From the NCBI GenBank assembly GCA_965226585.1, contig OZ245366.1, forward strand, positions 335,298 to 399,297: a stretch of DNA of 64,000 nt, read 5' to 3'. Below, one piece after another: positions 7,460-56,625 of this stretch; within the stretch, counting starts at the first letter, position 1; each line of letters opens with the position of its first letter. Below the pieces are notes generated by a model. The model was given only the letters and a program-made list of their open reading frames with translations. It was not told the DNA's origin and did no database searches. A program made the translations under genes and the position numbers. This stretch comes from Thermodesulfobacteriota bacterium (GTDB lineage Bacteria; Desulfobacterota_D; UBA1144; Nemesobacterales; Mycalebacteriaceae).

Positions 7460-8065
7460 ATGCGGTTTGAATTGACCCCCGCGCTGGGCTATGCTTCTGC
7501 GGTGGCAAAGAGGCGTATAACAAGGGTTTACACAAAGACCGGCGACGGCGGGCAAACCTCGCTTGTGGGCGGCTCAAGGGTTGACAAAGACTCCGCCAGA
7601 GTGTCTGCGTACGGAGATGTGGACGAGTTGAACTCGGCTCTTGGTGTCGCTCGCGCGTTCTGCAATGGCGGCGAACTTGAGTCCATAATTCTGGAAATTC
7701 AGAACGACCTTTTCATTCTCGGCTCAGACCTTGCCAGCCCCGCCGGGGTTGACTCTCCCAGAATTGACGAGTCTCGCGCCGAGAAGCTGGAGGCGTGGAT
7801 AGACCGCCACCTTGAGCAGATGGAGACGCTAAAAGAGTTCATACTTCCCGCCGGAAAACCCGCCGGGGCGTTTTTCCACCTTTCGCGCTCAATATGCCGC
7901 AGGGCGGAGAGAAGCGCGGTCGCCCTGATGAAAAAAGAGAAAACCTCACAGGCGGCGGCAATTTATCTCAACCGCCTTTCCGACCTTCTTTTTGTTCTCG
8001 CCCGCGCGGCAAACATCCGGGACGGTTTTGCCGAGGTTCCGGTTGACTTCGGTGGCAAACCTTGA
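7460..8065 (+). CDS. ATP:cob(I)alamin adenosyltransferase, PduO type
   Basis: RITRVYTKTGDGGQTSL and DLFILGSDLA motifs of the PduO/MMAB family. The true start may be slightly downstream of 7460. Confidence 0.85.
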   Translation: MRFELTPALGYASAVAKRRITRVYTKTGDGGQTSLVGGSRVDKDSARVSAYGDVDELNSALGVARAFCNGGELESIILEIQNDLFILGSDLASPAGVDSPRIDESRAEKLEAWIDRHLEQMETLKEFILPAGKPAGAFFHLSRSICRRAERSAVALMKKEKTSQAAAIYLNRLSDLLFVLARAANIRDGFAEVPVDFGGKP

Positions 8066-22097: not shown

Positions 22098-24479
22098 CCG
22101 CCCGTCGCTTTTTCCCGCCGCGCTCATCAGAGGCTCAAAAACTTCAGTTCCCGTAATTCTCTCTCCATCAGAAAACACCGAGACCATTCCCTCGTTTTCC
22201 GTCTCCCGTATCTCCGCCGGTGTTCCGCTCAAATCTCCCGCGCAACTGCGGCAAACCACAATTTCCGGGCGCGCCGTTTTTACCAGCGCGACCAGCGCGG
22301 CGCGGTTTTTATCATTAATTTTCGGCAGAAACACCACATCGCTTTCCACCTCATCTCCATACAGTTTCTCCACACCCTTTTTATGAGTATTGTGGATTGA
22401 TTCCGTCAACAGGAACGAAGTTTTCCCCGCCACAACTTTCACCAGCAAGGGATACGGAACTCCGGAATTCTCCACGCCCATTTTTTCGTGTAAGTGCAGG
22501 AACTTAATTTGCGCAAGACCGGTCTCTCCAATCTCTTGAACAGGTGATGAACGGTAGATTTTTTTCCACTTAACGCCGTGTTTTTCCACAGTTTTCCACA
22601 GTCTGTCGTTAAGTTTTGCACTGTTTATCCACAAGTTTTCCACACCGCCACCCTCTATAATTGCCGCCGCGCCGTTAAGCTGACCTCGGTCGTTTGAGAG
22701 CAGTATCAGAATGTCGGTTTTTGTAACGCGCTTTTTTCTGAGAGCAGGGAACACAACCGCCCTTTCTATGAAGTCCGAGCGGGCGAGTTTTGAAAAACCC
22801 CCTTTGATGAGAACCGTCTTTCCGTCCGGGAAGGTGAACAGCGCGATATTTTTTCTTCCCGCGTCAAAGAAAGACGCTTCGGTTTGCGCTCCGCCGGGGG
22901 GGCGGAAGTCGTAAGCCGCGCTCGCCGTGAGGCACAACATGAGAGCCGCCGCCGGATATGCCATTTTGCGGTTCAGTTTCACAAGCAGGAAAGCCGCCGC
23001 GCACAGGTAGAATAGGGCGAAAGTCCACCCGCTGAGCGAAGGCACGGTAACGGCGGGCGCGATGGAAGACAGGGCTTCCACCAGCGCCAGCAGGACGGCG
23101 GCAAAAACGGACAACGCTTCAAGAAGAAAACCCGGAACGAAGCCGAGCACGGCGAAAACCGCCACCGACACTATGCACAGGGGCACCATCGCAAGCGCCA
23201 CGGGCATAGCCGCGAGGTTGGCGGGGAAGGTGAGAACGGGAAGGAATCCGAACATGTTGATGACAAACGGCAGAGTTGCCGCCGTGGCGGCGGCAGTTGT
23301 GAAAAGCGCGGCGGCAAGGGCTTTTCCGGCTTTGAGTCCCGTGTTTTCCTCCGCTTCCTCTCTGCCGCCGCCGTAAAGATTCAGGGCGAGCAAAATTCCG
23401 AGAACGGCTGAGAACGACAGTATAAAAGACGCCTCAAAAAGCGCGCCCGGGGCGGCAACAAGAATGATAATCGCGGCGGCGGCGAGAGAGTTGAGACGGT
23501 CATCCTTTCTTCCCGCGACTATTGCGGTCAGGTACACCGCCGCCATAATCGCGGCGCGCACCGCGGAATTGCTCATCCCCGCGAGCAGGGCGTAGATGAA
23601 CACCGCCGGAATTGTGGCAAAGGCTGCCATTTTCGGCACGATGAAAGCCACCATCAGGTATCCCGATCTTTTCATAAGCCATTTGACGACCATGTAGAAA
23701 AAAACCGCCGCCACCCCGACGTGAAGCCCGGAGATTGCCAGCAGGTGACCGATTCCGAGTTTGGAAAAGCGGGTTTTCAGCTCAACCGGCAGCGCGCTTT
23801 TGTCTCCGGTAGACAGGGCGTTCACAATCTCCGCGCTCGCGGGCTCAAGTTTCTGCCTTATAAAAACGGCGTAATCTCTGCGAAGCCCTCCCACAAGGCG
23901 CAATATCGGATTTGAATCCCCCGCTCCCGCAGTCTTGATTTTGCCGGCGTCCGAATAAGCCGTGAAAAACACGCCCCTTGAGGCGAGCCTTTCCCGGTAT
24001 CCTCCCGCGCCGGGGTTTTTGAACTCCCTGACGGGTTTGATTTTGAGGCGCGCCTCCACGCGGTCTCCGTAGGCGAGGCCGTCAAGCCCGTTTGAATAGA
24101 CAAGGATTTTCCCGTCCGCTTTTTCCTCTACTCCCGAATGTTCAACCGCATCAACCAGAAGCGGAATTTTCGCGCTTGAGGGTCTTTTCTGCGCGTTTTC
24201 ATAAAGCTGCCCTTTCACTACCACCTGCCTGTCAATATTCTTGAGAAGCGCGGGATCCGGCTTTGCCGAGTGGAGAAACGGCAGAATAATTCCGGCGGGC
24301 AGGAAGGCGAGAAAAAGCAGTTTCGGAAACCGCAGACCCGCCCCGGCGATGAACAACACCGCAAGCGCGGCCGCGTGATATGCGGACGGCATATAGCGTG
24401 AAGCCGTTATTCCCAGAATAAGCAGGATTGCGCACACGGCAATTTTGTGCGCCCTGAACAGTGTGGAGAGGGCAGGCAT
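22080..24479 (-). CDS. comEC: DNA internalization-related competence protein ComEC/Rec2
   Basis: 799 aa. A polytopic membrane competence domain is followed by a C-terminal metallo-beta-lactamase-like domain. The 3' end overlaps dnaE convergently. Confidence 0.85.
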   Translation of the reverse strand: MPALSTLFRAHKIAVCAILLILGITASRYMPSAYHAAALAVLFIAGAGLRFPKLLFLAFLPAGIILPFLHSAKPDPALLKNIDRQVVVKGQLYENAQKRPSSAKIPLLVDAVEHSGVEEKADGKILVYSNGLDGLAYGDRVEARLKIKPVREFKNPGAGGYRERLASRGVFFTAYSDAGKIKTAGAGDSNPILRLVGGLRRDYAVFIRQKLEPASAEIVNALSTGDKSALPVELKTRFSKLGIGHLLAISGLHVGVAAVFFYMVVKWLMKRSGYLMVAFIVPKMAAFATIPAVFIYALLAGMSNSAVRAAIMAAVYLTAIVAGRKDDRLNSLAAAAIIILVAAPGALFEASFILSFSAVLGILLALNLYGGGREEAEENTGLKAGKALAAALFTTAAATAATLPFVINMFGFLPVLTFPANLAAMPVALAMVPLCIVSVAVFAVLGFVPGFLLEALSVFAAVLLALVEALSSIAPAVTVPSLSGWTFALFYLCAAAFLLVKLNRKMAYPAAALMLCLTASAAYDFRPPGGAQTEASFFDAGRKNIALFTFPDGKTVLIKGGFSKLARSDFIERAVVFPALRKKRVTKTDILILLSNDRGQLNGAAAIIEGGGVENLWINSAKLNDRLWKTVEKHGVKWKKIYRSSPVQEIGETGLAQIKFLHLHEKMGVENSGVPYPLLVKVVAGKTSFLLTESIHNTHKKGVEKLYGDEVESDVVFLPKINDKNRAALVALVKTARPEIVVCRSCAGDLSGTPAEIRETENEGMVSVFSDGERITGTEVFEPLMSAAGKSDGRLQNIK

Positions 24480-25669
24480 CAGGCTTTTTCAATCAGGCAC
24501 ATCGCCTTTGCCGCCACCCCTTCGCCCCTGCCGGTGAAGCCCATTTTCTCCGTGGTTGTGGCTTTTATGTTCACCGCGTCCGTTCCCAGTATGGCTGAGA
24601 TTTTTTCCCGCATCTCTCCGGTGTGCGGAGACAGGCGGGGTTTTTCGCAGACAATCACGCAGTCCACATTCACGGCTTGAAAACCGGCGCGTGATATGAT
24701 GGCGCGAGTCTGTTCCAGCAGATGCGCCCCTGTCGCGTTTTTGTACGCGGGGTCTGAGTCCGGAAAATGCTTGCCTATATCTCCAAGCCCCGCCGCTCCC
24801 AGAAGAGAGTCGCATATCGCGTGGGCAAGGGCATCTGCGTCTGAATGTCCTATAAGCCCTTTCTCAAACGGAATCTCCACACAGCCGAGAAACAGTTTTC
24901 TGTTCTTCCCAAACCTGTGGGCGTCAAATCCTGTTCCAACTCTGAAGCTCTTCATTCCGCCCCGCTCGAGCCCCCTGATGATTGCTTCGGCTGTTATCAA
25001 GTCTTCGCCGGTGGTGATTTTCATGTTCCGTTTTTCCCCTCCGGCGATAAGCACCTCTTTTCCGCGCCCTTCAAAAAGAGACGCTTCATCGGTTATCTCT
25101 TCGGGGTTTCCCGAAAAGTTTTCATAGATTTCCCCAAGCAGTTCTTTGCGGAACGCCTGAGGCGTTTGCGCCCGCCACACTCCGGAGCGCGGTATGCATT
25201 TGTGAAAGTACCGCTCTGCGCCGTTTTTTTCGTCCCCCCGGGTTTTCTTTATCGTGTCGTCAAGGGCAACTCCCGCAGAAGCCGCGCCGGAATCGTTCGC
25301 TCCCGAGATAACCGCCAGTATGGAGTGAGTGCTCACAAACGGTCTTGCCGCATCGTGAAAAACAACCACACCGCCGCCTGCGTTTTCAAATCCCAGCCGC
25401 GCGGATTCAAAGCGCGTTTTTCCACCGGTGATAACCTTTGTTTTTCCGCCTCCAAATTTTTCCGCTACTTCCTGTGCCTGTCCGATATGCTCTGCGGGGG
25501 CGGTGATTATGATTTCGCCTATGCCTTCGCAGTCTCTGAAAGTTTCAAGGCTGTGGGCAAGGAGCGGTTTTCCGCACAGATTCAGAAACTGCTTCGGCTC
25601 TCCCCCGACCCGTTTTCCCTCTCCCGCCGCGAGAATGATGGCGGAAACAATAGACCTGTTTTCTAACAT
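24479..25669 (-). CDS. ispDF: bifunctional 2-C-methyl-D-erythritol 4-phosphate cytidylyltransferase / 2-C-methyl-D-erythritol 2,4-cyclodiphosphate synthase
   Basis: N-terminal IspD (SAIILAAGEGKRVGG) is fused to C-terminal IspF (FRVGTGFDAHRF...GHSDADALAHA). The stop overlaps the comEC start. Confidence 0.9.
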   Translation of the reverse strand: MLENRSIVSAIILAAGEGKRVGGEPKQFLNLCGKPLLAHSLETFRDCEGIGEIIITAPAEHIGQAQEVAEKFGGGKTKVITGGKTRFESARLGFENAGGGVVVFHDAARPFVSTHSILAVISGANDSGAASAGVALDDTIKKTRGDEKNGAERYFHKCIPRSGVWRAQTPQAFRKELLGEIYENFSGNPEEITDEASLFEGRGKEVLIAGGEKRNMKITTGEDLITAEAIIRGLERGGMKSFRVGTGFDAHRFGKNRKLFLGCVEIPFEKGLIGHSDADALAHAICDSLLGAAGLGDIGKHFPDSDPAYKNATGAHLLEQTRAIISRAGFQAVNVDCVIVCEKPRLSPHTGEMREKISAILGTDAVNIKATTTEKMGFTGRGEGVAAKAMCLIEKA

Positions 25670-25696
25670 TTGAAAATGCTATATCTGTGGGCGTTT

Positions 25697-28600
25697 TCAT
25701 TCAAGTGGGTCACCCAAATCAAGCCTCAATCCCAAATAACGGACATCAAGTTTGTCCGCCTTGAACTGGTCAAAGGGATTTTCCAGTAGCGATATTCCGG
25801 TTTCATTTCCCCCCGCATTGAAAACCGTGCAAATCTGGTACTCGCCTAACTCCATTTGATTTTGACATCTACGGGCGTGTTCCCACTGTGGACCTGTAAT
25901 TTCGAAGGTGTGAGGGGGGCTACTTATTGTTGTCTTGACCTCTACGAAGATATCCAAATTGCCTTTTCTGCTGATGCTTATGTCATAGGGCTTACTGCTT
26001 TCCCCTGCTTCATTCATCCAGACTACCTCATCTTCCAGATATTTCTTTTGTAGTGCGAGAAGAACTTCTTCTTCTCCCCATCTTCCGGCTTCCAGATTTG
26101 GCTTTGTAGGTCTGCTGTTATTACTATCCTCTCTTGTGGAATTGTTCTGACGAGGGGAAGAGGTTCTTGGCGACAGTGTAGGCGTTACGGCGCGGTATAT
26201 TTTCGATGAACCATTCGGCTCGCGTTCGGGTTTCCATGGTTCTTCTGCAAAATTGTTGGGTTCCCCCGGTGTTCTGACCCCGCTTCTTTCATAGTTGCTT
26301 GAGCGCGGTTGTTTTAGTTGTTTCAGTTCTGCTTTCAATTCTTCATTCTCTTGCTTTAACTGTGTGTTTTCCTCCGCTTTTTCTTGGTACTCTTTGCGAG
26401 TAACAACTTCCGGTCTCATTCCCAGAGCGCGAGCTAATGTGTCTCGGGCTATTGGGGTTCCTTTCTCATACATTTCGTTCAAATCTTCAAATCCGTAATT
26501 TCCCAGAGATTCTATTTGTATCAGTTCGTTTTTTTTATCGTAGAGCCAGTTGTGTTTTTGTATAGTCTGTCCGGCTTCTGAGAACATCTCACACGTATTT
26601 TTGTTGGAAAAATTCTTTTGAGAACTACAAGATACTTTTCCCCTTAAATGGTCATAATATTTCAAGAGGAAACTCCACAAAATCTTTGAACGGCCCTCAT
26701 TGATATTTTCGAGAGAGTATTGAAGCCCGTAGATTTTGAAGTTAGGCTTAAAACCGTCTTCGCCTTTTTTATGGGGATTATCGGGAGTTCCGTGACGTAC
26801 TGTTTTCTTCCACTCTTCGCCATCCCATTCCCACTTTCCATCGTCATATTCCAAATCTTTAAAGCATCCGATTTTTACAAACATTTCTTTTATTTCTTTA
26901 TTGTTTTTCTCTGTCCATTTCAACTCTTTGACAGGTTCTATCTCTTTATTGTCTTTGAACCATTTTGTAGTTATCTCATCCTGCAGGAAAGTTTTGTCCG
27001 GTTTGCTATAGATTCCTGTTTCCGTGCGAATAATATAGAGGTTTTTTAATGACTTTGTGATGTCACTATCATTTTTGTAGCCTGCTATACGAGCAATGTT
27101 TTTGAGGTGATATTCTTCATTTATTTGGTGGTTTTCGTTTTCGTATTTGGGCAGTATGTCTTTTTGTATCCAGTCTTTTTCATCAGGTTCTTTGATTCCT
27201 AGGTATTCAAACAGTTTTTTGGCGTTTTCTTGCTTCAAAATTTCTTTGTCAATTATTTTGAAGGATGAGGACTCACTGTTGGATTCGTACGGTCTGAAAA
27301 CCTGTAGGTTTCCTTTAGAATCAAACGGAGACACGTAGTCTCCATTCTGTAGGCGTAAGATAGGTTTTTCTTTGAACAAGTCAATTATTTCACGATACCT
27401 CCCGTAAAATTTAGGTTTTAATTCACTTTCTTTTTCTTCTATAAAAATACCGTAAAAGTTATTTAGCCACTTATCATCTTTTTTACTGATGAATTCTTTA
27501 TCTAATTTCTCTGCAAACTTTTCTAACGAGAATTCTTCTATTGAGAGGATTTGGCGAATGTTATCTGGAATGTCCGTGGAGACCCATTTATACATGACAT
27601 CTTTTATTTCGTGTGGTTTAAGAAGTTTGGTTAGTTCCTTGTCTTTAGTAAACAAACATTCTTTCGGGTGAAGATATGTGTTTACTTCAACACCCGGAAG
27701 CAGTTTTTCTTGTTTCATTTTCTCTGTCACGGCCTCGCGTACGGTAGAGTATGGTTCTTCTCCATTTCTTTCGTTCACGGGCAGAAATCTTAAGACATCG
27801 GTTGATAGCAAACCTATATCTCTTATCAATGGCAGAGAATCGGCAACGAGTCTTCCCAAGCTCTTTGTAATTTCTTGGTTGTCTTCGTCATCAAGGCAGA
27901 GATTCTCTCTGCTGGGAGTTGTTCCGTAGGGTGCTTGAACAAGAAAAGGGAGATAACTTTCCGTGCTTGTCGGAAAAAAAACAAATACTGGGCTCTCGGC
28001 AACGCTAACCAGATTTCTTTTTTCTTTGAGTAAAGCGATTTTAATTTTATGGCTGGTTTTCCTGACTGATTTTATTGGCTCTATTACAAGATAGTGTTGG
28101 TCACCACCATCTCCGACAGTTGTTTCAGTAACTTTGAAATCTTTTTTGTATTTCTGCGGAATTTTTAGTGATTTTCTCTTTATGTGTAGATTCCATTTCT
28201 TGTCCTTATAGGAGAAAGTTATTCTTTGTATGTTTTTGAGGAAAAGGAGATTTTCACTTTTTGTTTCTTCAAATCCTTTGATTATAGTTTGTTTGATGTT
28301 CTGAGATTCATCGTTTTTGAGGCGAAGAATAAAAAGTGTTTCTTTTCCAATGTCTTTGGGTTTAACTTCTTCTGGAAGTATATAGTCCTCAATTTTGAAG
28401 TGGTATTTCCCCGAATGAATAATCGGAGAATCTGTAATGTTAAAAACTGACTTGAAGCCAACCCCGAACTTTCCTATGTCGTTTTTTCCTTCTTTATCTG
28501 AGTCACCAAAGTTAGTTATTGAATCAACATTGTTATAAGTAAAAACTTTTTTGCCATCGTGTCTTATCAGCAATTCTTTGTCTGACAAATCAAAGTGTAC

Positions 28601-28798
28601 GAACTTTGCTTCCTTATCTTCGGCATTTTGAAGAAATTCAAAAATGAACTGTGTTTTCTTAGAATGTTGTTCCGCAAGGAGTTTATGCGAGCGGTCTTTG
28701 CGTTTTTTCATCAGCTTGTGGTATTCGAGTATTTCCTCGCGAAGTTTGGCCAATCCGGGGTTGATATCTGCTTTATCCATATCAGTTTCTCTCCTCAT
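25697..28798 (-). CDS. large two-domain protein: N-terminal sacsin/MORC-type GHKL (HATPase) domain, coiled-coil and S/P-rich linker, C-terminal DUF3883 (restriction-endonuclease-like) domain; candidate defense ATPase-nuclease
   Basis: 1033-aa ORF in a markedly AT-rich stretch. N-terminus FIFEFLQNAEDKEAKFVHF...GKFGVGFKSVF is the Bergerat-fold sacsin-like ATP lid. C-terminus GEEEVLLALQKKYLEDEVVWMNE...PYDISI...DIFVEVKTT...YQICTVFNAG matches DUF3883. A coiled coil (TQLKQENEELKAELKQLKQ) and a Ser/Pro/Thr-rich linker lie between them. Confidence 0.75.
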   Translation of the reverse strand: MRRETDMDKADINPGLAKLREEILEYHKLMKKRKDRSHKLLAEQHSKKTQFIFEFLQNAEDKEAKFVHFDLSDKELLIRHDGKKVFTYNNVDSITNFGDSDKEGKNDIGKFGVGFKSVFNITDSPIIHSGKYHFKIEDYILPEEVKPKDIGKETLFILRLKNDESQNIKQTIIKGFEETKSENLLFLKNIQRITFSYKDKKWNLHIKRKSLKIPQKYKKDFKVTETTVGDGGDQHYLVIEPIKSVRKTSHKIKIALLKEKRNLVSVAESPVFVFFPTSTESYLPFLVQAPYGTTPSRENLCLDDEDNQEITKSLGRLVADSLPLIRDIGLLSTDVLRFLPVNERNGEEPYSTVREAVTEKMKQEKLLPGVEVNTYLHPKECLFTKDKELTKLLKPHEIKDVMYKWVSTDIPDNIRQILSIEEFSLEKFAEKLDKEFISKKDDKWLNNFYGIFIEEKESELKPKFYGRYREIIDLFKEKPILRLQNGDYVSPFDSKGNLQVFRPYESNSESSSFKIIDKEILKQENAKKLFEYLGIKEPDEKDWIQKDILPKYENENHQINEEYHLKNIARIAGYKNDSDITKSLKNLYIIRTETGIYSKPDKTFLQDEITTKWFKDNKEIEPVKELKWTEKNNKEIKEMFVKIGCFKDLEYDDGKWEWDGEEWKKTVRHGTPDNPHKKGEDGFKPNFKIYGLQYSLENINEGRSKILWSFLLKYYDHLRGKVSCSSQKNFSNKNTCEMFSEAGQTIQKHNWLYDKKNELIQIESLGNYGFEDLNEMYEKGTPIARDTLARALGMRPEVVTRKEYQEKAEENTQLKQENEELKAELKQLKQPRSSNYERSGVRTPGEPNNFAEEPWKPEREPNGSSKIYRAVTPTLSPRTSSPRQNNSTREDSNNSRPTKPNLEAGRWGEEEVLLALQKKYLEDEVVWMNEAGESSKPYDISISRKGNLDIFVEVKTTISSPPHTFEITGPQWEHARRCQNQMELGEYQICTVFNAGGNETGISLLENPFDQFKADKLDVRYLGLRLDLGDPLE

Positions 28799-28890
28799 GA
28801 GCAGTGTGTAATCTGCACAGAGCCAAGACTTTATCCAAAAAGAGCCTTGAAACCAAAGGCGCGAATACTCATAATAGCCCTGTCTACGGA

Positions 28891-29644
28891 GACTCTATTA
28901 TTGAAAGTACAAACCCTTGCCAGCGGAAGTTCGGGAAACTGCACTTTTATAGACAGCGGATGCTCAAAGATACTTGTTGACGCCGGTATCGGTGTGCGAA
29001 AACTCTCCAAATTCCTCGGGCAAATAGGCGTAAGTATGGAAGAGATAGACGCCGTTGTTGTCAGCCACGAACACTTAGACCACGCAAAAGCGATAACCTC
29101 CATTCCCGTTCCCGTCTATGTTTCATCCGCCACGGCGCACCTGTGGCACAAAAAAGTTGACTCTCTTTCCGAGTTCAATTCCGGCGGCGGTTTCGAAGTC
29201 GGCGCGATGACGATAAACACCTTTCCCGTTCCCCATGACGCCCTGGACCCGGTCGGCTTCACCGTTGAGGCGAAAGGCAAAAAAGTGGGAGTTGTTACCG
29301 ATATCGGCAGAGAAACCGGAGTTGTTTCCGACCGGCTGCGCGATTGCGATATGCTGGTGATAGAGTCAAACCACGATGAACGACAGCTTCTGTCCGGGCT
29401 CTACCCGTGGGAATTGAAACAGAGAATCGGCGGAAGTCTCGGCCATCTGTCAAACCGGCAGTGCTCAAATCTTCTCTGCGGCGTGGCGCACGACAAACTG
29501 CGTTTTGTGGTTCTCGCCCACTTGAGCGAGTCAAACAATATGCCCGCTCTCGCCCTTGACTCCGCGCGCGCGGCGGTCAGGGGGAGCGGGGCGTCCGTTC
29601 ACGTGGCTCCCAGAGTGTCGCCGGGGGAGGCGTTCATAATTTGA
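28891..29644 (+). CDS. MBL-fold metallo-hydrolase
   Basis: HEHLDHA metal-binding motif. Probable TTG start (LKVQTLASGSSGNC) with GGAG about 10 nt upstream. The track ORF from 28595 is an upstream in-frame extension overlapping the divergent gene. Confidence 0.7.
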
Positions 29645-33199: not shown

Positions 33200-33994
33200 A
33201 TGGCAAAGAATCTGAACCCTTGGATAGAGATGAGTATTGAATACGCGAACCAGCGTAGTTACTTGGATGATTTGTTCACCGTTTATCCGACAATACCGGA
33301 TGGTATTCGTGAAATAGATGAGGAAGTTCGGGAAAGTGTGGAAAAATCGTTTGAAAAGCAGGACAACATTTCGCTTATTGAAAACTTGCTCAAACTTGAA
33401 CTTTTTCCGGTCAAGGACTCGTATGTAGCGTACCTCAGGAGAGACAAAGAATCCTTGAGACGCAATCCTGCCACCGTAGACAGGCTTGCCGGTCGCATTT
33501 ATGATTTGGGGCTGGAGGAAGTTTTGTCTCGCTCTTCCGAGCCGAAAGAAACCAACAGGCAAATAGGCCCGCTTTTCAAACGCTGGATTAGTGGAAAGTC
33601 TCTCGGTGTGAAGCCAGTGAAGTTGGATAAGTTTTTGGAAACAAAAAGAAACGCTGTTCTTGATGCAAGTGATGAAGAGATGAAAGAATTTGCTTGGAAA
33701 AATCTGAATTACAAGCATGACAAAGGGCTCGATTTTGTCGGGCGTTTTAACGGCAAATACGTTATTGGAGAAGCAAAATTCCTAACTGATTTTGGAGGAC
33801 ATCAGAACGCTCAATTCAATGATGCTGTAGCTACTGTAACAGCGCGTGGAGTGAAAGCAGTTCAGGTCGCAATTCTTGACGGTGTCCTATACATTGAAAG
33901 CAGAAGTAAATTGCATAAGGAAATTACCGGACGGCTTAGAAACAAAAATATAATGAGTGCATTGGTTTTTCGGGAGTTTCTGTATCAGGTCTAA
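33200..33994 (+). CDS. putative type II restriction endonuclease (PD-(D/E)XK-like)
   Basis: 264 aa, AT-rich. It carries a D...(E)AK-type motif (GLDFVGRF...VIGEAKF) and overlaps the downstream DNA methyltransferase start by 1 nt (TAATG). Confidence 0.5.
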   Translation: MAKNLNPWIEMSIEYANQRSYLDDLFTVYPTIPDGIREIDEEVRESVEKSFEKQDNISLIENLLKLELFPVKDSYVAYLRRDKESLRRNPATVDRLAGRIYDLGLEEVLSRSSEPKETNRQIGPLFKRWISGKSLGVKPVKLDKFLETKRNAVLDASDEEMKEFAWKNLNYKHDKGLDFVGRFNGKYVIGEAKFLTDFGGHQNAQFNDAVATVTARGVKAVQVAILDGVLYIESRSKLHKEITGRLRNKNIMSALVFREFLYQV

Positions 33995-35124
33995 TGCCAA
34001 TGTTCATTACTTATGAAAACAAGAAGTCTGAGAAAGATATTCTCGACAAAACTTCTGGCGTAGGTCTGGATGTTGTTTCCGGGCAAGGGGCGGCAAACAA
34101 GCTTATTCACGCAGACAACCTTCCAACTCTTAAAACTCTACTTGCCGATTATGCTGGGAAAATTGATTTGATTTACATTGACCCCCCATTTGCCACGAAC
34201 GGACATTTCAAAATCAGCAAAGACAGGGCGAATACGGTCAGCTGTTGCAATGGTGATGAAGTGGCGTACAGCGATACCCTTTTAGGAGTGGATTTTCTGG
34301 AATTTTTGCGTGAAAGGCTGGTACTGTTGCGCGAACTCTTATCCGAACACGGGTCAATTTATCTGCACATTGACTACAAGATAGGGCATTACGTCAAGTT
34401 GATAATGGATGAGATATTTGGAATCGGTACGTTCCGGAACGATATTACCAGAGTTAAGTGTAATCCGAAGAATTTTAACCGTAAAGCGTATGGAAACATT
34501 AAGGATTTGATACTTTTTTATTCAAAATCTCCTACTCCGAAATGGAATGACCCGCGTATTCCTTTTTCAAAAGAGGATGAGGAACGCTTGTTCAAAAAAA
34601 CAGATGATAACGGGCGGAAATATACGACAATACCGCTTCACGCGCCTGGAGAAACTTCAAGCGGTAAGACGAGCGAGGAGTGGAAAGGTATGAAGCCGCC
34701 TAGGGGAAGGCATTGGCGTACCGACCCGGCGATACTTGAGAAATGGGACAATCAGGGATTGGTTGAGTGGTCGGTAAACGGAGTTCCACGTAAGAAAATC
34801 TTTCTTGATGAGAGGAGAGGTAAGAAAATGCAAGACATTTGGGAATTCAAGGACCCGCAGTATCCGCAGTACCCAACGGAGAAAAGTTTGAATCTTTTGA
34901 AATTTATTATTGAAGCGTCATCAAACGAAGGAGATTTGGTACTGGATTGTTTTGCGGGTTCGGGAACGACTCTTGTCGCAGCACAATCTCTGAACCGTCA
35001 TTGGATAGGAATTGACGAGTCTGAATCGGCGATTAAAGTTATCAAAGAGAGAATAAACGATTTGCCTGCCACTCTTTTTTCACTTGTTGAATATGAGTTT
35101 TTGAGAACAGTACAAATGCCATAG
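33994..35124 (+). CDS. DNA methyltransferase, beta-class N6-adenine/N4-cytosine type (motif IV DPPF preceding motif I FAGSGTT)
   Basis: 376 aa, AT-rich. IYIDPPF catalytic motif lies N-terminal to the LDCFAGSGTTLVAA SAM-binding motif, which is the circular permutation typical of beta-group amino-MTases. Confidence 0.8.
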   Translation: MPMFITYENKKSEKDILDKTSGVGLDVVSGQGAANKLIHADNLPTLKTLLADYAGKIDLIYIDPPFATNGHFKISKDRANTVSCCNGDEVAYSDTLLGVDFLEFLRERLVLLRELLSEHGSIYLHIDYKIGHYVKLIMDEIFGIGTFRNDITRVKCNPKNFNRKAYGNIKDLILFYSKSPTPKWNDPRIPFSKEDEERLFKKTDDNGRKYTTIPLHAPGETSSGKTSEEWKGMKPPRGRHWRTDPAILEKWDNQGLVEWSVNGVPRKKIFLDERRGKKMQDIWEFKDPQYPQYPTEKSLNLLKFIIEASSNEGDLVLDCFAGSGTTLVAAQSLNRHWIGIDESESAIKVIKERINDLPATLFSLVEYEFLRTVQMP

Positions 35125-35149
35125 TATTCGACCTGATGACCAAGAAAAA

Positions 35150-35178
35150 TTGACACTTTTCAGGCAGTTAGGTATAGA
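35150..35178 (+). promoter_or_regulatory. sigma70-like promoter (TTGACA-17nt-TATAGA) upstream of the Panacea-domain gene
   Basis: ttgacacttttcaggcagttaggtatagaat lies about 55 nt upstream of the ATG at 35230. Confidence 0.35.
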
Positions 35179-35229
35179 ATGTGAGGTAGCGATTGAACTT
35201 ATTGTAAGTATGAAAATAGGGGGGTTGCA

Positions 35230-35760
35230 ATGCCGAAATCAACAAAAAAGCTAACCGAACTTCTCTTGTATGTTGCGTCTAAATCTGAAGGAGACGGGAG
35301 TTTTGGAATGACTAAACTCAACAAATTGATGTTTTTTTCAGATTTTTCTCACTACAAAAAGACTGGAAGATCTATTACAGACACCACTTATGTAAGAAAC
35401 CATCGGGGACCCACCATTAAGGATTTACATTTGGTATTGAATGAAATGGAGAGTAATCGTGTTTCTGCGATTAAAGAGACAGATTTTCACGGCTATCCAC
35501 AGAAGCGTCTAATTGCACTGAGACGCGCTGACATATCACAGTTTACGGTTGATGAGATAGACACGGTAGGGAGTGTTCTATCACTTCTGAAGGGTCATAA
35601 TGCGTCAGAAGTTAGTGAAGCATCCCACGAATTCGTAGGGTGGAGATTTGCCCGTCAGGGTGAGGAAATCCCTTACATGACTATTAATATATGTAGTCCT
35701 GAACAGGTTGCTGAATCAATGTCAGATGAAGAGTTAAGGCAAGCAAGTGAGTACGACTGA
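35230..35760 (+). CDS. Panacea-domain (DUF4065, SocA/GepA-like) antitoxin candidate
   Basis: 176 aa. The N-terminus LTELLLYVASKS...MTKLNKLMFFSDFSHYKKTGRSITDTTYVRNHRGP matches the Panacea/DUF4065 signature. RBS gggggg upstream. AT-rich. Confidence 0.7.
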   Translation: MPKSTKKLTELLLYVASKSEGDGSFGMTKLNKLMFFSDFSHYKKTGRSITDTTYVRNHRGPTIKDLHLVLNEMESNRVSAIKETDFHGYPQKRLIALRRADISQFTVDEIDTVGSVLSLLKGHNASEVSEASHEFVGWRFARQGEEIPYMTINICSPEQVAESMSDEELRQASEYD

Positions 35761-48444: not shown

Positions 48445-49179
48445 TTATTTCTTTTCATACTGTTCAACAAAATACGCAGGTCTTTTTTTGCCTCTGTATG
48501 AAGGGTGAGGACCAACATAAACAGTTCTTTTATTTGTCGATACAAAACTCAATATCTCTTCTTTGCGGTTAAATTCAAGGCTTTGAAAAATAATTATGTC
48601 TGGGTTGAAAATGTTGACTTCTTTAATAAAAAACTCTTGTTCAATGTCTTTTTTGTAATGCTTTCTGTTTTTCCCTCCTGATTTGTAATTTCTGCCTACG
48701 TCAACGAACTTGTAGAAATTTGTCAGGGATATATGGGAAAGAGGATTTTCTTCCGGCAGGCAATCCTTTTTGTTTTTCAATATTTGCTGACAGGTATGTG
48801 TTTTCCCTATTTCATTCCACTTGTTTCCCCAATTCAGATTTTTTTCCAGAAAGTGTAGGGCGGTGAAATAAGTTCCGGCAATGTGCGGGTTGAGGAGATG
48901 AAACTCTTTTTTCTCAATGCTTGAATTTCTCCCGTTAAAATCCTGTATATGTTCTTTCTCATCTTTTCCCTTATCGAGTCCTACAAAAAGAATTGCGGGT
49001 GAATACTTCCCGTAATTTGAACCGATGTACGGATAAGTGGGGAACCTAACTTTCTTACACTTGCGAGTATTTTGATGTGATTCTGTTTTGAGAATCCCCG
49101 TTTTCGGGTCTATTTCCATATCACGGAAAAATTTTCCGTGCGTTTCTTTCAATTCTCTTTTTAATCTGCCGTTGGACAC
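48445..49179 (-). CDS. low-GC hypothetical protein (possible divergent UDG-superfamily fold; speculative)
   Basis: 244-aa Lys/Asn-rich ORF in an AT-rich stretch. Segments AILFVGLDKG and VGPHPSYRG are faintly reminiscent of UDG motif A and motif B (HPS). No confident family. Confidence 0.5.
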   Translation of the reverse strand: MSNGRLKRELKETHGKFFRDMEIDPKTGILKTESHQNTRKCKKVRFPTYPYIGSNYGKYSPAILFVGLDKGKDEKEHIQDFNGRNSSIEKKEFHLLNPHIAGTYFTALHFLEKNLNWGNKWNEIGKTHTCQQILKNKKDCLPEENPLSHISLTNFYKFVDVGRNYKSGGKNRKHYKKDIEQEFFIKEVNIFNPDIIIFQSLEFNRKEEILSFVSTNKRTVYVGPHPSYRGKKRPAYFVEQYEKK

Positions 49180-55893: not shown

Positions 55894-56625
55894 ATGGACA
55901 AAGTGACGTTTAAGCAGTTTCGCAGTTTTATTCAGTTTTTTGATGGAGAGGAATTAGAAACACCTGTTCAAAAAAAACCTTTTAGAGTTGATGTTGCAGA
56001 AACATATATTTCTTTTACTCCTGAAGTCAGTGGGGAATCAAGAAGTGTTTATTATAAAAATGACATTATAGGGAGCGAAGGAAAAAAGGGTTATTTAGCA
56101 TTTTATAATGAAGGTTGCAGACAAGGCAAGGATTTCCCTCGTAAAAATTATATGGATGTTTCATATTTTATTGCTGTTATGAAAGAATATGAAAAACCTC
56201 AAAATCGTATTTTTCATAAGAGTGAAAATCACAAAAAAACTGAAACACAGTCTCTTGCAATGGCAAGGGTGGGACAAGGTGAATTCAGGAATCAACTTTT
56301 AGCGTATTGGGAGAGTTCCTGTTCAGTTACCGGAGTTAATGATAAAAATTTGTTGCGTGCTTCTCATATCAAACCTTGGAGAGACTCTCAAAACAATGAA
56401 CGGTTGGACAAGTTCAATGGCTTGCTGTTGAATCCAAATCTGGATTTGTTGTTTGACAAAGGATTTATAACTTTTGATGGTAATGGCAAAATTCACATTT
56501 CTAAGCAAATATCAAAAAAGAATCTAGATAGATTAGGCGTTAAGGATTCTATGTCTTTAAGAAGGATTGATGGTGGGCACAAGCATTTCCTCGATTATCA
56601 TAGAGAGAAGGTTTTTCAAAAGTAA
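55894..56625 (+). CDS. HNH endonuclease (HNH_2/PF13391-like C-terminal domain) with unknown N-terminal domain
   Basis: 243 aa, AT-rich. The C-terminus RVGQGEFRNQLLAYWESSCSVTG...LLRASHIKPW...NGLLLNPNLDLLFDKGFITF matches the HNH_2 signature. The gene starts 2 nt after the cobQ stop, and its stop overlaps the cobW ATG. Confidence 0.7.
   Translation: MDKVTFKQFRSFIQFFDGEELETPVQKKPFRVDVAETYISFTPEVSGESRSVYYKNDIIGSEGKKGYLAFYNEGCRQGKDFPRKNYMDVSYFIAVMKEYEKPQNRIFHKSENHKKTETQSLAMARVGQGEFRNQLLAYWESSCSVTGVNDKNLLRASHIKPWRDSQNNERLDKFNGLLLNPNLDLLFDKGFITFDGNGKIHISKQISKKNLDRLGVKDSMSLRRIDGGHKHFLDYHREKVFQK

Follow-up and report, generated by a model that had tools for sequence, protein, structure and literature searches.

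Here we analyze a gene in a 64,000-nucleotide window of contig OZ245366.1 from a Thermodesulfobacteriota bacterium (GCA_965226585.1). The gene occupies positions 25697-28798 of the minus strand and encodes a protein of 1033 amino acids (aa), which probably serves as a stand-alone, ATP-regulated nuclease of the Tiamat (TmtA) family, protecting the cell from phages or other invading DNA. It is an accessory gene, replaced by an alternative allele or an empty site in near-identical strains. This three-state polymorphism, comprising the window allele, a 56%-identical allele and an empty site in genomes with ~98-99% identical flanks, is the new observation reported here.

Tiamat is a validated defense system whose mechanism is listed as unknown in a 2026 review, and a 2024 survey places it among the single-gene PD-(D/E)XK systems. 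The locus supplies a compact 1033-aa version with its catalytic motifs intact, together with a natural allele series of two constrained alleles and an empty site in near-identical backgrounds. It is otherwise an ordinary case of a defense gene in a variable chromosomal slot.

A short relative of TmtA

TmtA is described as 'Hsp90, DUF3684, DUF3883' in the preprint Table S2 of Millman et al. 2022, who observed defense for the Bacillus cereus FORC_005 protein (1590 aa) and none for that of Enterobacter sp. ku-bf2 (1429 aa). Described TmtA proteins span ~1300-1800 aa, and the original family expansion used 'similar average protein size'. PADLOC represents Tiamat by the TmtA profiles PDLC03964-03972, and eight TmtA profiles match the 1033-aa protein, as raw hmmscan scores without the thresholds of the full pipeline. 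The best is PDLC03972 (E 6e-79), with residues 38-758 aligned to positions 31-797 of 1302. The C-terminal 233 residues, scanned alone, align through residues 803-1018 to positions 1105-1294 of the same profile (E 1.8e-20), and four other TmtA profiles are likewise matched at their C-terminal ends. Colinearity with TmtA thus extends over ~73% of the 1302-position profile, with ~300 internal positions (~798-1104) missing.

An Hsp90-like ATPase, a C-terminal DUF3883 domain and a colinear TmtA profile match are all present, and the single-gene character of the system is matched by a strain-variable unit of one open reading frame (ORF) plus ~50 nucleotides (nt). Pfam DUF3684 gives no match at E up to 1, though the region is homologous to TmtA profile positions 31-797. 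Four short-form relatives that were checked match PDLC03972 at 1e-64 to 1e-110. One PADLOC TmtA model, of 1063 positions, aligns with short-form relatives over the ATPase motifs only and is not among the matches of the window protein.

Judged by sequence, the protein is best described as a divergent short member of a known, named family, remote from the one verified TmtA. An initial annotation of the window had proposed a candidate single-protein defense system, which is supported, and had held the architecture to be uncharacterized as a named system, which must be revised because this architecture is that of TmtA (Millman et al. 2022).

Conserved ATPase and nuclease centers

In the 1033-aa protein, Pfam places SACS at aa 45-136 (6.2e-16) and NOV_C/DUF3883 at aa 910-998 (2.5e-11), and NCBIfam identifies a sacsin N-terminal ATP-binding-like domain (2.4e-23). 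A search of solved structures with the family profile returned sacsin SR1 (5V44-47, E ~1e-16) and weak Hsp90 matches, and nothing else; no solved structure of Tiamat was detectable by sequence. We modeled the protein with AlphaFold2 from a 45-homolog alignment, at a mean predicted local distance difference test (pLDDT) score of 81. In Foldseek, the best fold matches of this model are structures of the N-terminal plus middle domains of Hsp90/TRAP1 (500-560 alignment columns, E 1.6e-8), with the MLH1 and MutL N-terminal domains (~1e-5), PMS2 and sacsin SR1 (6e-6) ranked lower. The 50 listed fold matches comprise Hsp90/TRAP1/GRP94/HtpG, MutL-family proteins (MutL, MLH1, PMS2 and similar) and sacsin.

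These results bear out the sacsin-type Bergerat ATPase and the restriction-endonuclease-like DUF3883 C-terminus of the initial annotation, together with its coiled coil and low-complexity linker, which correspond to a helix at residues 801-824 and a following low-pLDDT stretch rich in Ser, Pro, Thr and Asn. The motifs it quoted (FIFEFLQNAEDKEA, GKFGVGFKSVF, YDISI and FVEVKTT) are all present in the translation. Its 'MORC-type' label fared less well, as PF13589 HATPase_c_3 reaches 15.2 bits (E 0.022), below its cut-off of 25, and no MORC protein stands among the 50 listed fold matches; it should be replaced by 'sacsin/Hsp90-type'. A Pfam scan found no DnaJ, HEPN or repeated sacsin regions, and there is one ATPase module only, so the protein is not a sacsin proper.

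The ATPase motifs are E54-x3-N58-x2-D61, H80-D-G82, G109-x-F-G112-x-G114-F-K116 and an invariant R297. Across the 45 homologs (~25-58% identity), E54, N58, D61, H80, G82, G109, G112, G114, K116 and R297 in the ATPase, and D939, E953, K955, Q971 and W972 in the nuclease domain, are invariant or nearly so. Because of this conservation, both enzymatic centers look active. By analogy with the arginine of the Hsp90 middle domain, R297 may be a gamma-phosphate sensor. Residues 301-520 would correspond to the Hsp90 middle domain, their exact range being our estimate and not one given by Foldseek. The nuclease domain resembles the Holliday-junction resolvase Hjc in fold comparison. For residues 521-800, the fold searches detected no structural relative, and the sole profile match is a weak one to TmtA PDLC03969.

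Two alleles and an empty site

As the initial annotation had stated, the gene is the one long minus-strand ORF of an AT-rich islet between ispDF and an MBL-fold hydrolase gene, which the ORF listing, translation and composition confirm. ispDF (24479-25669, minus) begins 27 nt past its stop codon, and the MBL-fold gene (28901-29644, plus) is the divergent neighbor on its upstream side. The GC content of the gene is 0.388 against 0.51-0.55 in every flanking gene, windowed composition gives 0.33-0.41 along its interior against 0.51-0.56 in the surroundings, and GC at third codon positions (GC3) is 0.39 against ~0.6 in the flanks.

The gene order of the window recurs on a contig of run SRR10511996 (L081), whose flanks (gshA, a DsbA-like gene, purB, MBL, ispDF, comEC and dnaE) are 98.3-100% identical in DNA. 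The slot gene of L081 shares 56% protein and 69% DNA identity with the window gene, and the divergence spans the whole ORF (41-86% per 90-nt bin). The edges of the allele are sharp, with 100% identity down to ~28851 and 99% from the stop codon at 25697. In GCA_051010995.1 (L088), the flanks are 97.5-98.5% identical and the slot gene is absent: MBL and ispDF are 122 nt apart, with 87 nt replacing window positions 25639-28837. The strain-variable unit is therefore ~25697-28850 against the L081 allele and 25639-28837 against the empty site, closely bracketed by the 25670-28890 of the initial annotation. The empty-site genome also differs in the first ~10 codons of ispDF (VSIKNSTSA, L088 8001-8030, against MLENRSIVSA in the occupied genomes, window 25640-25669), and the exchanged haplotype therefore reaches into an essential gene.

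Both alleles appear from their sequences to be functional and far older than the strains that carry them, because the ratio of nonsynonymous to synonymous divergence between them (dN/dS) is 0.25 and synonymous divergence (dS) is ~1.1. In-place hypermutation was rejected as the origin of the allele divergence, as a dS of ~1.1 stands against ~1% divergence in the flanks; the alleles are taken to have been swapped by homologous recombination via the conserved flanks, and not generated in place. Searches of the junctions for a target-site duplication, for terminal or flanking (direct or inverted) repeats, for a recombinase and for Rfam elements were negative; tRNAs were not scanned for.

Identity between the alleles is 66% in the ATPase, 68% in DUF3883, 48% in residues 521-800, 32% in the helix and 41% in the linker, so that among folded regions residues 521-800 diverge most. 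Of the catalytic and motif residues checked, the L081 allele retains all but D81, which is N. With conservation highest in the enzymatic domains and lowest, among folded parts, in the unmatched middle module, this module is a candidate seat of specificity.

In a more distant relative (L086, Logan SRR23241728; amino acid identity 83% for purB and 64% for MBL), the slot holds a 42%-identical copy that is equally AT-rich, so that low GC belongs to this gene pool as a lasting feature and does not indicate recent arrival. In this copy, at ~2000-2185 of L086, an in-frame TAG replaces the Glu of the LQNA-E-D ATP-binding motif (FIFEILQNA*DAGAK), while the rest is intact and in frame; the stop codon reflects either recent inactivation or an assembly error. 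The earlier view of the gene as laterally acquired consequently stands for its variability, seen in an alternative allele and an empty site, and does not stand for its base composition as proof of recent arrival, as the slot is occupied and AT-rich in L086. Housekeeping genes flank the gene in the window and likewise in L081, L086 and L089. Neither a metagenome scan with a conserved ispDF 32-mer nor a protein-based metagenome scan yielded further occupants of the slot, and the exact MBL protein occurs on one other contig only.

Transcriptional context

The 27-nt spacer before ispDF differs by one base between the two occupied strains, and its motif TGAAAAC...GATATAGCATTT is found at the empty site too. 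A terminator scan found no terminator-like site in it. Because of this and the 27-nt spacing, the gene probably shares the ispDF-comEC transcript, with operon membership read from spacing only; promoter and terminator counts at the locus are no better than in shuffled sequence and are uninformative.

A hairpin with a trailing T-run (GCCTTTGGTTTCAAGGC TCTTTTTGG), oriented like the gene and ispDF, lies upstream of the gene at window 28844-28860 on the minus strand. Its counterpart at the empty site (L088 ~7925-7945; CCGTTATTTCAAGACGG TTTTG) stands ~60 nt ahead of ispDF, its stem apparently kept by compensatory changes. Insertion of the gene may have separated an ispDF leader element from ispDF itself.

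The MBL neighbor was considered as a partner gene and rejected, as its GC is normal, it overlaps purB, and it is 100% conserved and still present at the empty site. An MBL-fold gene also lies near a homolog in a metagenome-assembled genome (MAG) of Nitrospirota (L090 12377-13144) and is 35% identical to the window MBL. Because of this low identity and the retention of the window MBL at the empty site, we treat the recurrence as coincidence. Coordinates of the features are collected in Table 1.

Table 1. Features of the 1033-aa gene, its borders and the restriction-modification islet, in window coordinates
Feature	Position	Strand	Basis
Whole ORF, TmtA-like (Tiamat-family) short form, 1033 aa	25697..28798	-	ORF call; PADLOC TmtA PDLC03972; homologs
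Residues 45-300, sacsin/Hsp90-type GHKL (Bergerat) ATPase	27899..28666	-	Pfam, NCBIfam, sacsin 5V44-47, Foldseek, motif conservation
Residues 301-520, helical region, inferred Hsp90 middle-domain equivalent	27239..27898	-	Foldseek columns; pLDDT mostly 83-96
Residues 521-800, confidently folded alpha/beta middle module, candidate recognition module	26399..27238	-	Fold search, inter-allele identity
Residues 801-824, long helix / putative coiled coil	26327..26398	-	Model helix; weak DivIC and bZIP Pfam matches at 801-830
Residues 825-900, disordered Ser/Pro/Thr/Asn-rich linker	26099..26326	-	pLDDT <50 at 819-852 and 875-899; sequence
Residues 901-1033, DUF3883/NOV_C PD-(D/E)XK nuclease domain; D939, E953-V-K955, Q971-W972	25700..26098	-	
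Allele-specific 5' leader, ~50 nt	28799..28850	-	Sister-strain identity restarts ~28851
27-nt spacer, stop codon to ispDF start	25670..25696	-	Strain alignments, empty-site comparison
Tsp45I-like type II restriction enzyme	33200-33994	+	Pfam 3e-118
N6/N4 DNA methyltransferase	33994-35124	+	PADLOC MTase_II 2e-169
SocA/Panacea-domain protein	35230-35760	+	

Family members in other genomes

With clustering at 50% identity, an exhaustive family search gave 4,989 clusters within an E-value limit of 1e-3 and 1,176 within a limit of 1e-30. Most of its top matches are 1000-1090 aa long. A further homolog search recovered the identical protein (P0001) and hundreds of SACS+NOV_C homologs of ~1040 aa, and the named records read 'DUF3883 domain-containing protein'. 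The 80 loci that come from named genomes are spread over many bacterial phyla and several archaea, and relatives occur in 22 plasmid records and one phage record, mostly as partial matches. Members of the family share the first ~800 residues and vary at the C-terminus, where some carry DUF3883, many have tails without a Pfam match and one 1630-aa protein has a Mokosh-like tail. With this one Mokosh-like tail and most others unmatched in Pfam, effector swapping at the C-terminus is only partly documented. In an Actinomycetota group (L013, L016, L019, L022, L024 and others), the proteins are 820-870 aa long, end after the ~800-residue module without a nuclease domain and have host-like GC. In L013, the one locus checked for it, the downstream gene is a short-chain dehydrogenase, and no separate effector gene is evident there.

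Of 67 family loci, 51 have a gene of lower GC than its flanks (mean difference -0.042, Wilcoxon p 3e-8). This deficit peaks in the DUF3883 clade closest to the window protein, as in a Nitrospina MAG (0.30 against 0.53). A Candidatus Poriferihabitaceae MAG (CBDFMY010000003.1; L030, L049) holds two family members ~380 kb apart, with GC of 0.41 and 0.37 against flanks of 0.56, and a sponge metagenome is also the source of P0003, one of the homologs nearest to the window protein. In the literature searched, no paper combining plant NO VEIN with GHKL ATPases was found.

The Thermodesulfovibrio homolog resides in a defense island with methyltransferases, HinfI-type and ThaI restriction enzymes, DruA, NurA and HerA. 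On the Sulfuricurvum kujiense plasmid pSULKU01 (L091, NC_014754.1 31208-39743), a 1006-aa short form lies between a NERD-domain gene, which it overlaps by 4 nt, and a complete QatABCD system; this homolog is neither in the stored Tiamat gene list of Millman et al. 2022 nor entered as Tiamat in their stored DefenseFinder table. A Nitrospirota MAG homolog has HNH and HEPN neighbors. Neighborhoods in the family are mixed: alongside clear defense islands such as these, there are solitary insertions among housekeeping genes.

A four-gene cassette, DruA / SACS-DUF3883 gene / NurA / HerA(DUF87), is found both in Thermodesulfovibrio (L082 8855-17692) and in the archaeon Ferroglobus (L007 1622-8826), with 71-80% protein identity between the two and 62% for the SACS-DUF3883 gene. 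Its sharing implies block transfer across domains, possibly of a multi-gene variant of the system.

Proposed mechanism and alternative explanations

In the mechanism we propose for a Tiamat-family nuclease of this kind, ATP binding would dimerize the N-terminal domains into a clamp, by analogy with Hsp90, MutL and VcSduA. The variable middle module may recognize a phage-derived cue, which could be a protein or a form of DNA, and this recognition would gate clamp closure, licensing the tethered Hjc-like DUF3883 nuclease to nick or cleave DNA. Its substrate could be the invader's DNA or, in an abortive response, any cellular DNA. As the gene has no methyltransferase partner, discrimination between self and non-self would have to reside in the protein itself. 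Related domains have defensive roles in characterized proteins: the DUF3883 of HmaA is a nickase essential for T4 defense (PMC11232893), that of YenY4I is the annotated catalytic domain (PMC6765204), and VcSduA joins a GHKL and a PD-(D/E)xK domain in a single defense protein that requires both activities (PMC12137116). The presence of a type II restriction-modification islet 4.4 kb from the gene, in the same window, lends further support to a role in defense.

A broader proposal, possible though short of probable, is that the ~1000-1060-aa SACS-DUF3883 proteins form a distinct, widespread short branch of Tiamat, in which the middle module (residues 521-800) sets target specificity. In this Thermodesulfobacteriota lineage, the gene would then be a swappable cassette (allele A, allele B or empty) at a fixed slot, drawing on an essential operon's promoter for its expression, and phage-driven balancing selection would maintain its polymorphism.

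Several observations weigh against a Tiamat-like defensive role. The verified B. cereus TmtA, compared over its first 399 residues, is alignable with the window protein over the ATP-binding motifs only (31% over 83 aa). The Enterobacter TmtA is closer in the N-terminal region (24% over 310 aa, E 6e-22), yet showed no defense in the original screen. The ~300 positions of the nearest TmtA profile that are absent here count in the same direction, as does the absence of the Sulfuricurvum short-form homolog beside Qat from the original paper's stored Tiamat tables. The neighborhoods of 13 DUF3883-form loci are mixed and include many housekeeping genes, with solitary insertions among them. The position of the gene 27 nt upstream of the essential ispDF without a terminator-like site, and the retention of the slot in L086, can be read as domestication. 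The defense role, dimerization, trigger and substrate are proposed by analogy.

Among the alternatives, the protein could be a type IV-like, modification-dependent restriction enzyme, a sub-case of defense in which DUF3883 would cut foreign-modified DNA, the middle module would read the modification and the GHKL domain would act as motor or clamp. We consider this unlikely. It would account for a nuclease that stands alone in the variable unit, lacking a cognate methyltransferase, and for a middle module that is the most variable folded part and without assignment, and DUF3883 is catalytic in the modification-dependent YenY4I and in DUF3427-DUF3883 fusions (PMC6765204). However, a Pfam scan of the 1033-aa protein found no PUA, SRA, DUF3427 or other known modified-base reader, residues 521-800 lack a fold match, although they might hold a reader of a new type, and the nickase DUF3883 of HmaA acts in an abortive-infection-like manner that is not modification-dependent (PMC11232893).

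A domesticated housekeeping factor, such as an Hsp90/MutL-like enzyme of DNA repair or branched-DNA processing expressed with the ispDF-comEC operon, seems improbable to us. The absence of the gene from a genome with 97.5-98.5% identical flanks, and its replacement by a 56%-identical allele in a strain with ~99% identical flanks, argue against such a factor, as do its GC3 of 0.39 against 0.6, the in-frame stop codon in the ATP-binding motif of the L086 copy and the occurrence of family members on plasmids and in defense islands. These points are set against co-orientation and tight packing before ispDF with no terminator-like site, occupancy of the slot in a relative whose purB is 83% identical, an N-terminal fold like that of MutL as well as Hsp90, an Hjc-like nuclease and purifying selection on the gene. 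Even less credible is a selfish or addictive element, or a decaying remnant, of no benefit to the host. Presence/absence polymorphism, foreign base composition and the apparent inactivation of one related copy would fit it, but no recombinase, target-site duplication, terminal repeats or antitoxin-like partner was found, and the 1033-codon ORF is unbroken, retains every catalytic residue and has a dN/dS of 0.25.

Further low-GC patches in the window

Four housekeeping genes from the 1033-aa gene lies a second AT-rich islet (window 33200-35760, plus strand, GC 0.41-0.44), whose three genes are listed in Table 1. Just beyond gshA, L088 has a different methyltransferase, a 467-aa unknown protein and a SIR2_2 protein, which suggests that the region beyond gshA, compared by gene content and not aligned, is a second variable defense slot. 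In a third low-GC patch (0.39; window 55894-56625, plus strand), the gene for an HNH_2 endonuclease (PADLOC HNH 2e-27) immediately precedes one for a CobW-family GTPase. A further low-GC gene (0.41; window 48445-49179, minus strand) has a weak match to the uracil-DNA-glycosylase superfamily (6e-6) and adjoins a DUF924 gene.

Comparison with known systems

With TmtA of Tiamat, the 1033-aa protein shares a single-gene organization and the order of an Hsp90/sacsin-like ATPase, a large middle region and a C-terminal DUF3883. It differs in length, at 1033 aa against the 1590 aa of the verified B. cereus protein and the 1429 aa of the Enterobacter protein, and in having a helix and a disordered linker in place of ~300 positions between the middle module and DUF3883.

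MutL, Hsp90 and sacsin resemble the protein in the fold of its first ~500 residues. They are housekeeping chaperone or repair proteins, and the MutL_C, DnaJ and HEPN domains are absent here. In MutL, the GHKL ATPase is joined to an endonuclease by a long disordered linker; this endonuclease domain is not known to have a PD-(D/E)XK fold.

HmaA (Snf2 helicase + NOV_C) and YenY4I (PUA-DUF3427-DUF3883) differ in their N-terminal parts, which consist of an SF2 helicase and modification readers, respectively. In HmaA, a conserved Glu follows the catalytic Lys by 15 residues, whereas a near-invariant Gln (Q971) is found here, 16 past K955.

VcSduA (paraMORC3; Shedu type I-D, Vibrio cholerae) likewise combines an N-terminal GHKL ATPase and a C-terminal PD-(D/E)xK nuclease in one polypeptide, and a dimeric, clamp-like model has been proposed for it (PMC12137116). 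Its ATPase is of the HATPase_c/MORC-like type, in contrast to the sacsin/Hsp90-like ATPase of the window protein, and its nuclease is DUF4263 rather than DUF3883. The published nuclease mutant of VcSduA is K557A, which places that motif ~400 residues earlier than K955. Neither PADLOC nor Pfam gives a Shedu or DUF4263 match in the 1033-aa protein, which therefore falls outside Shedu.

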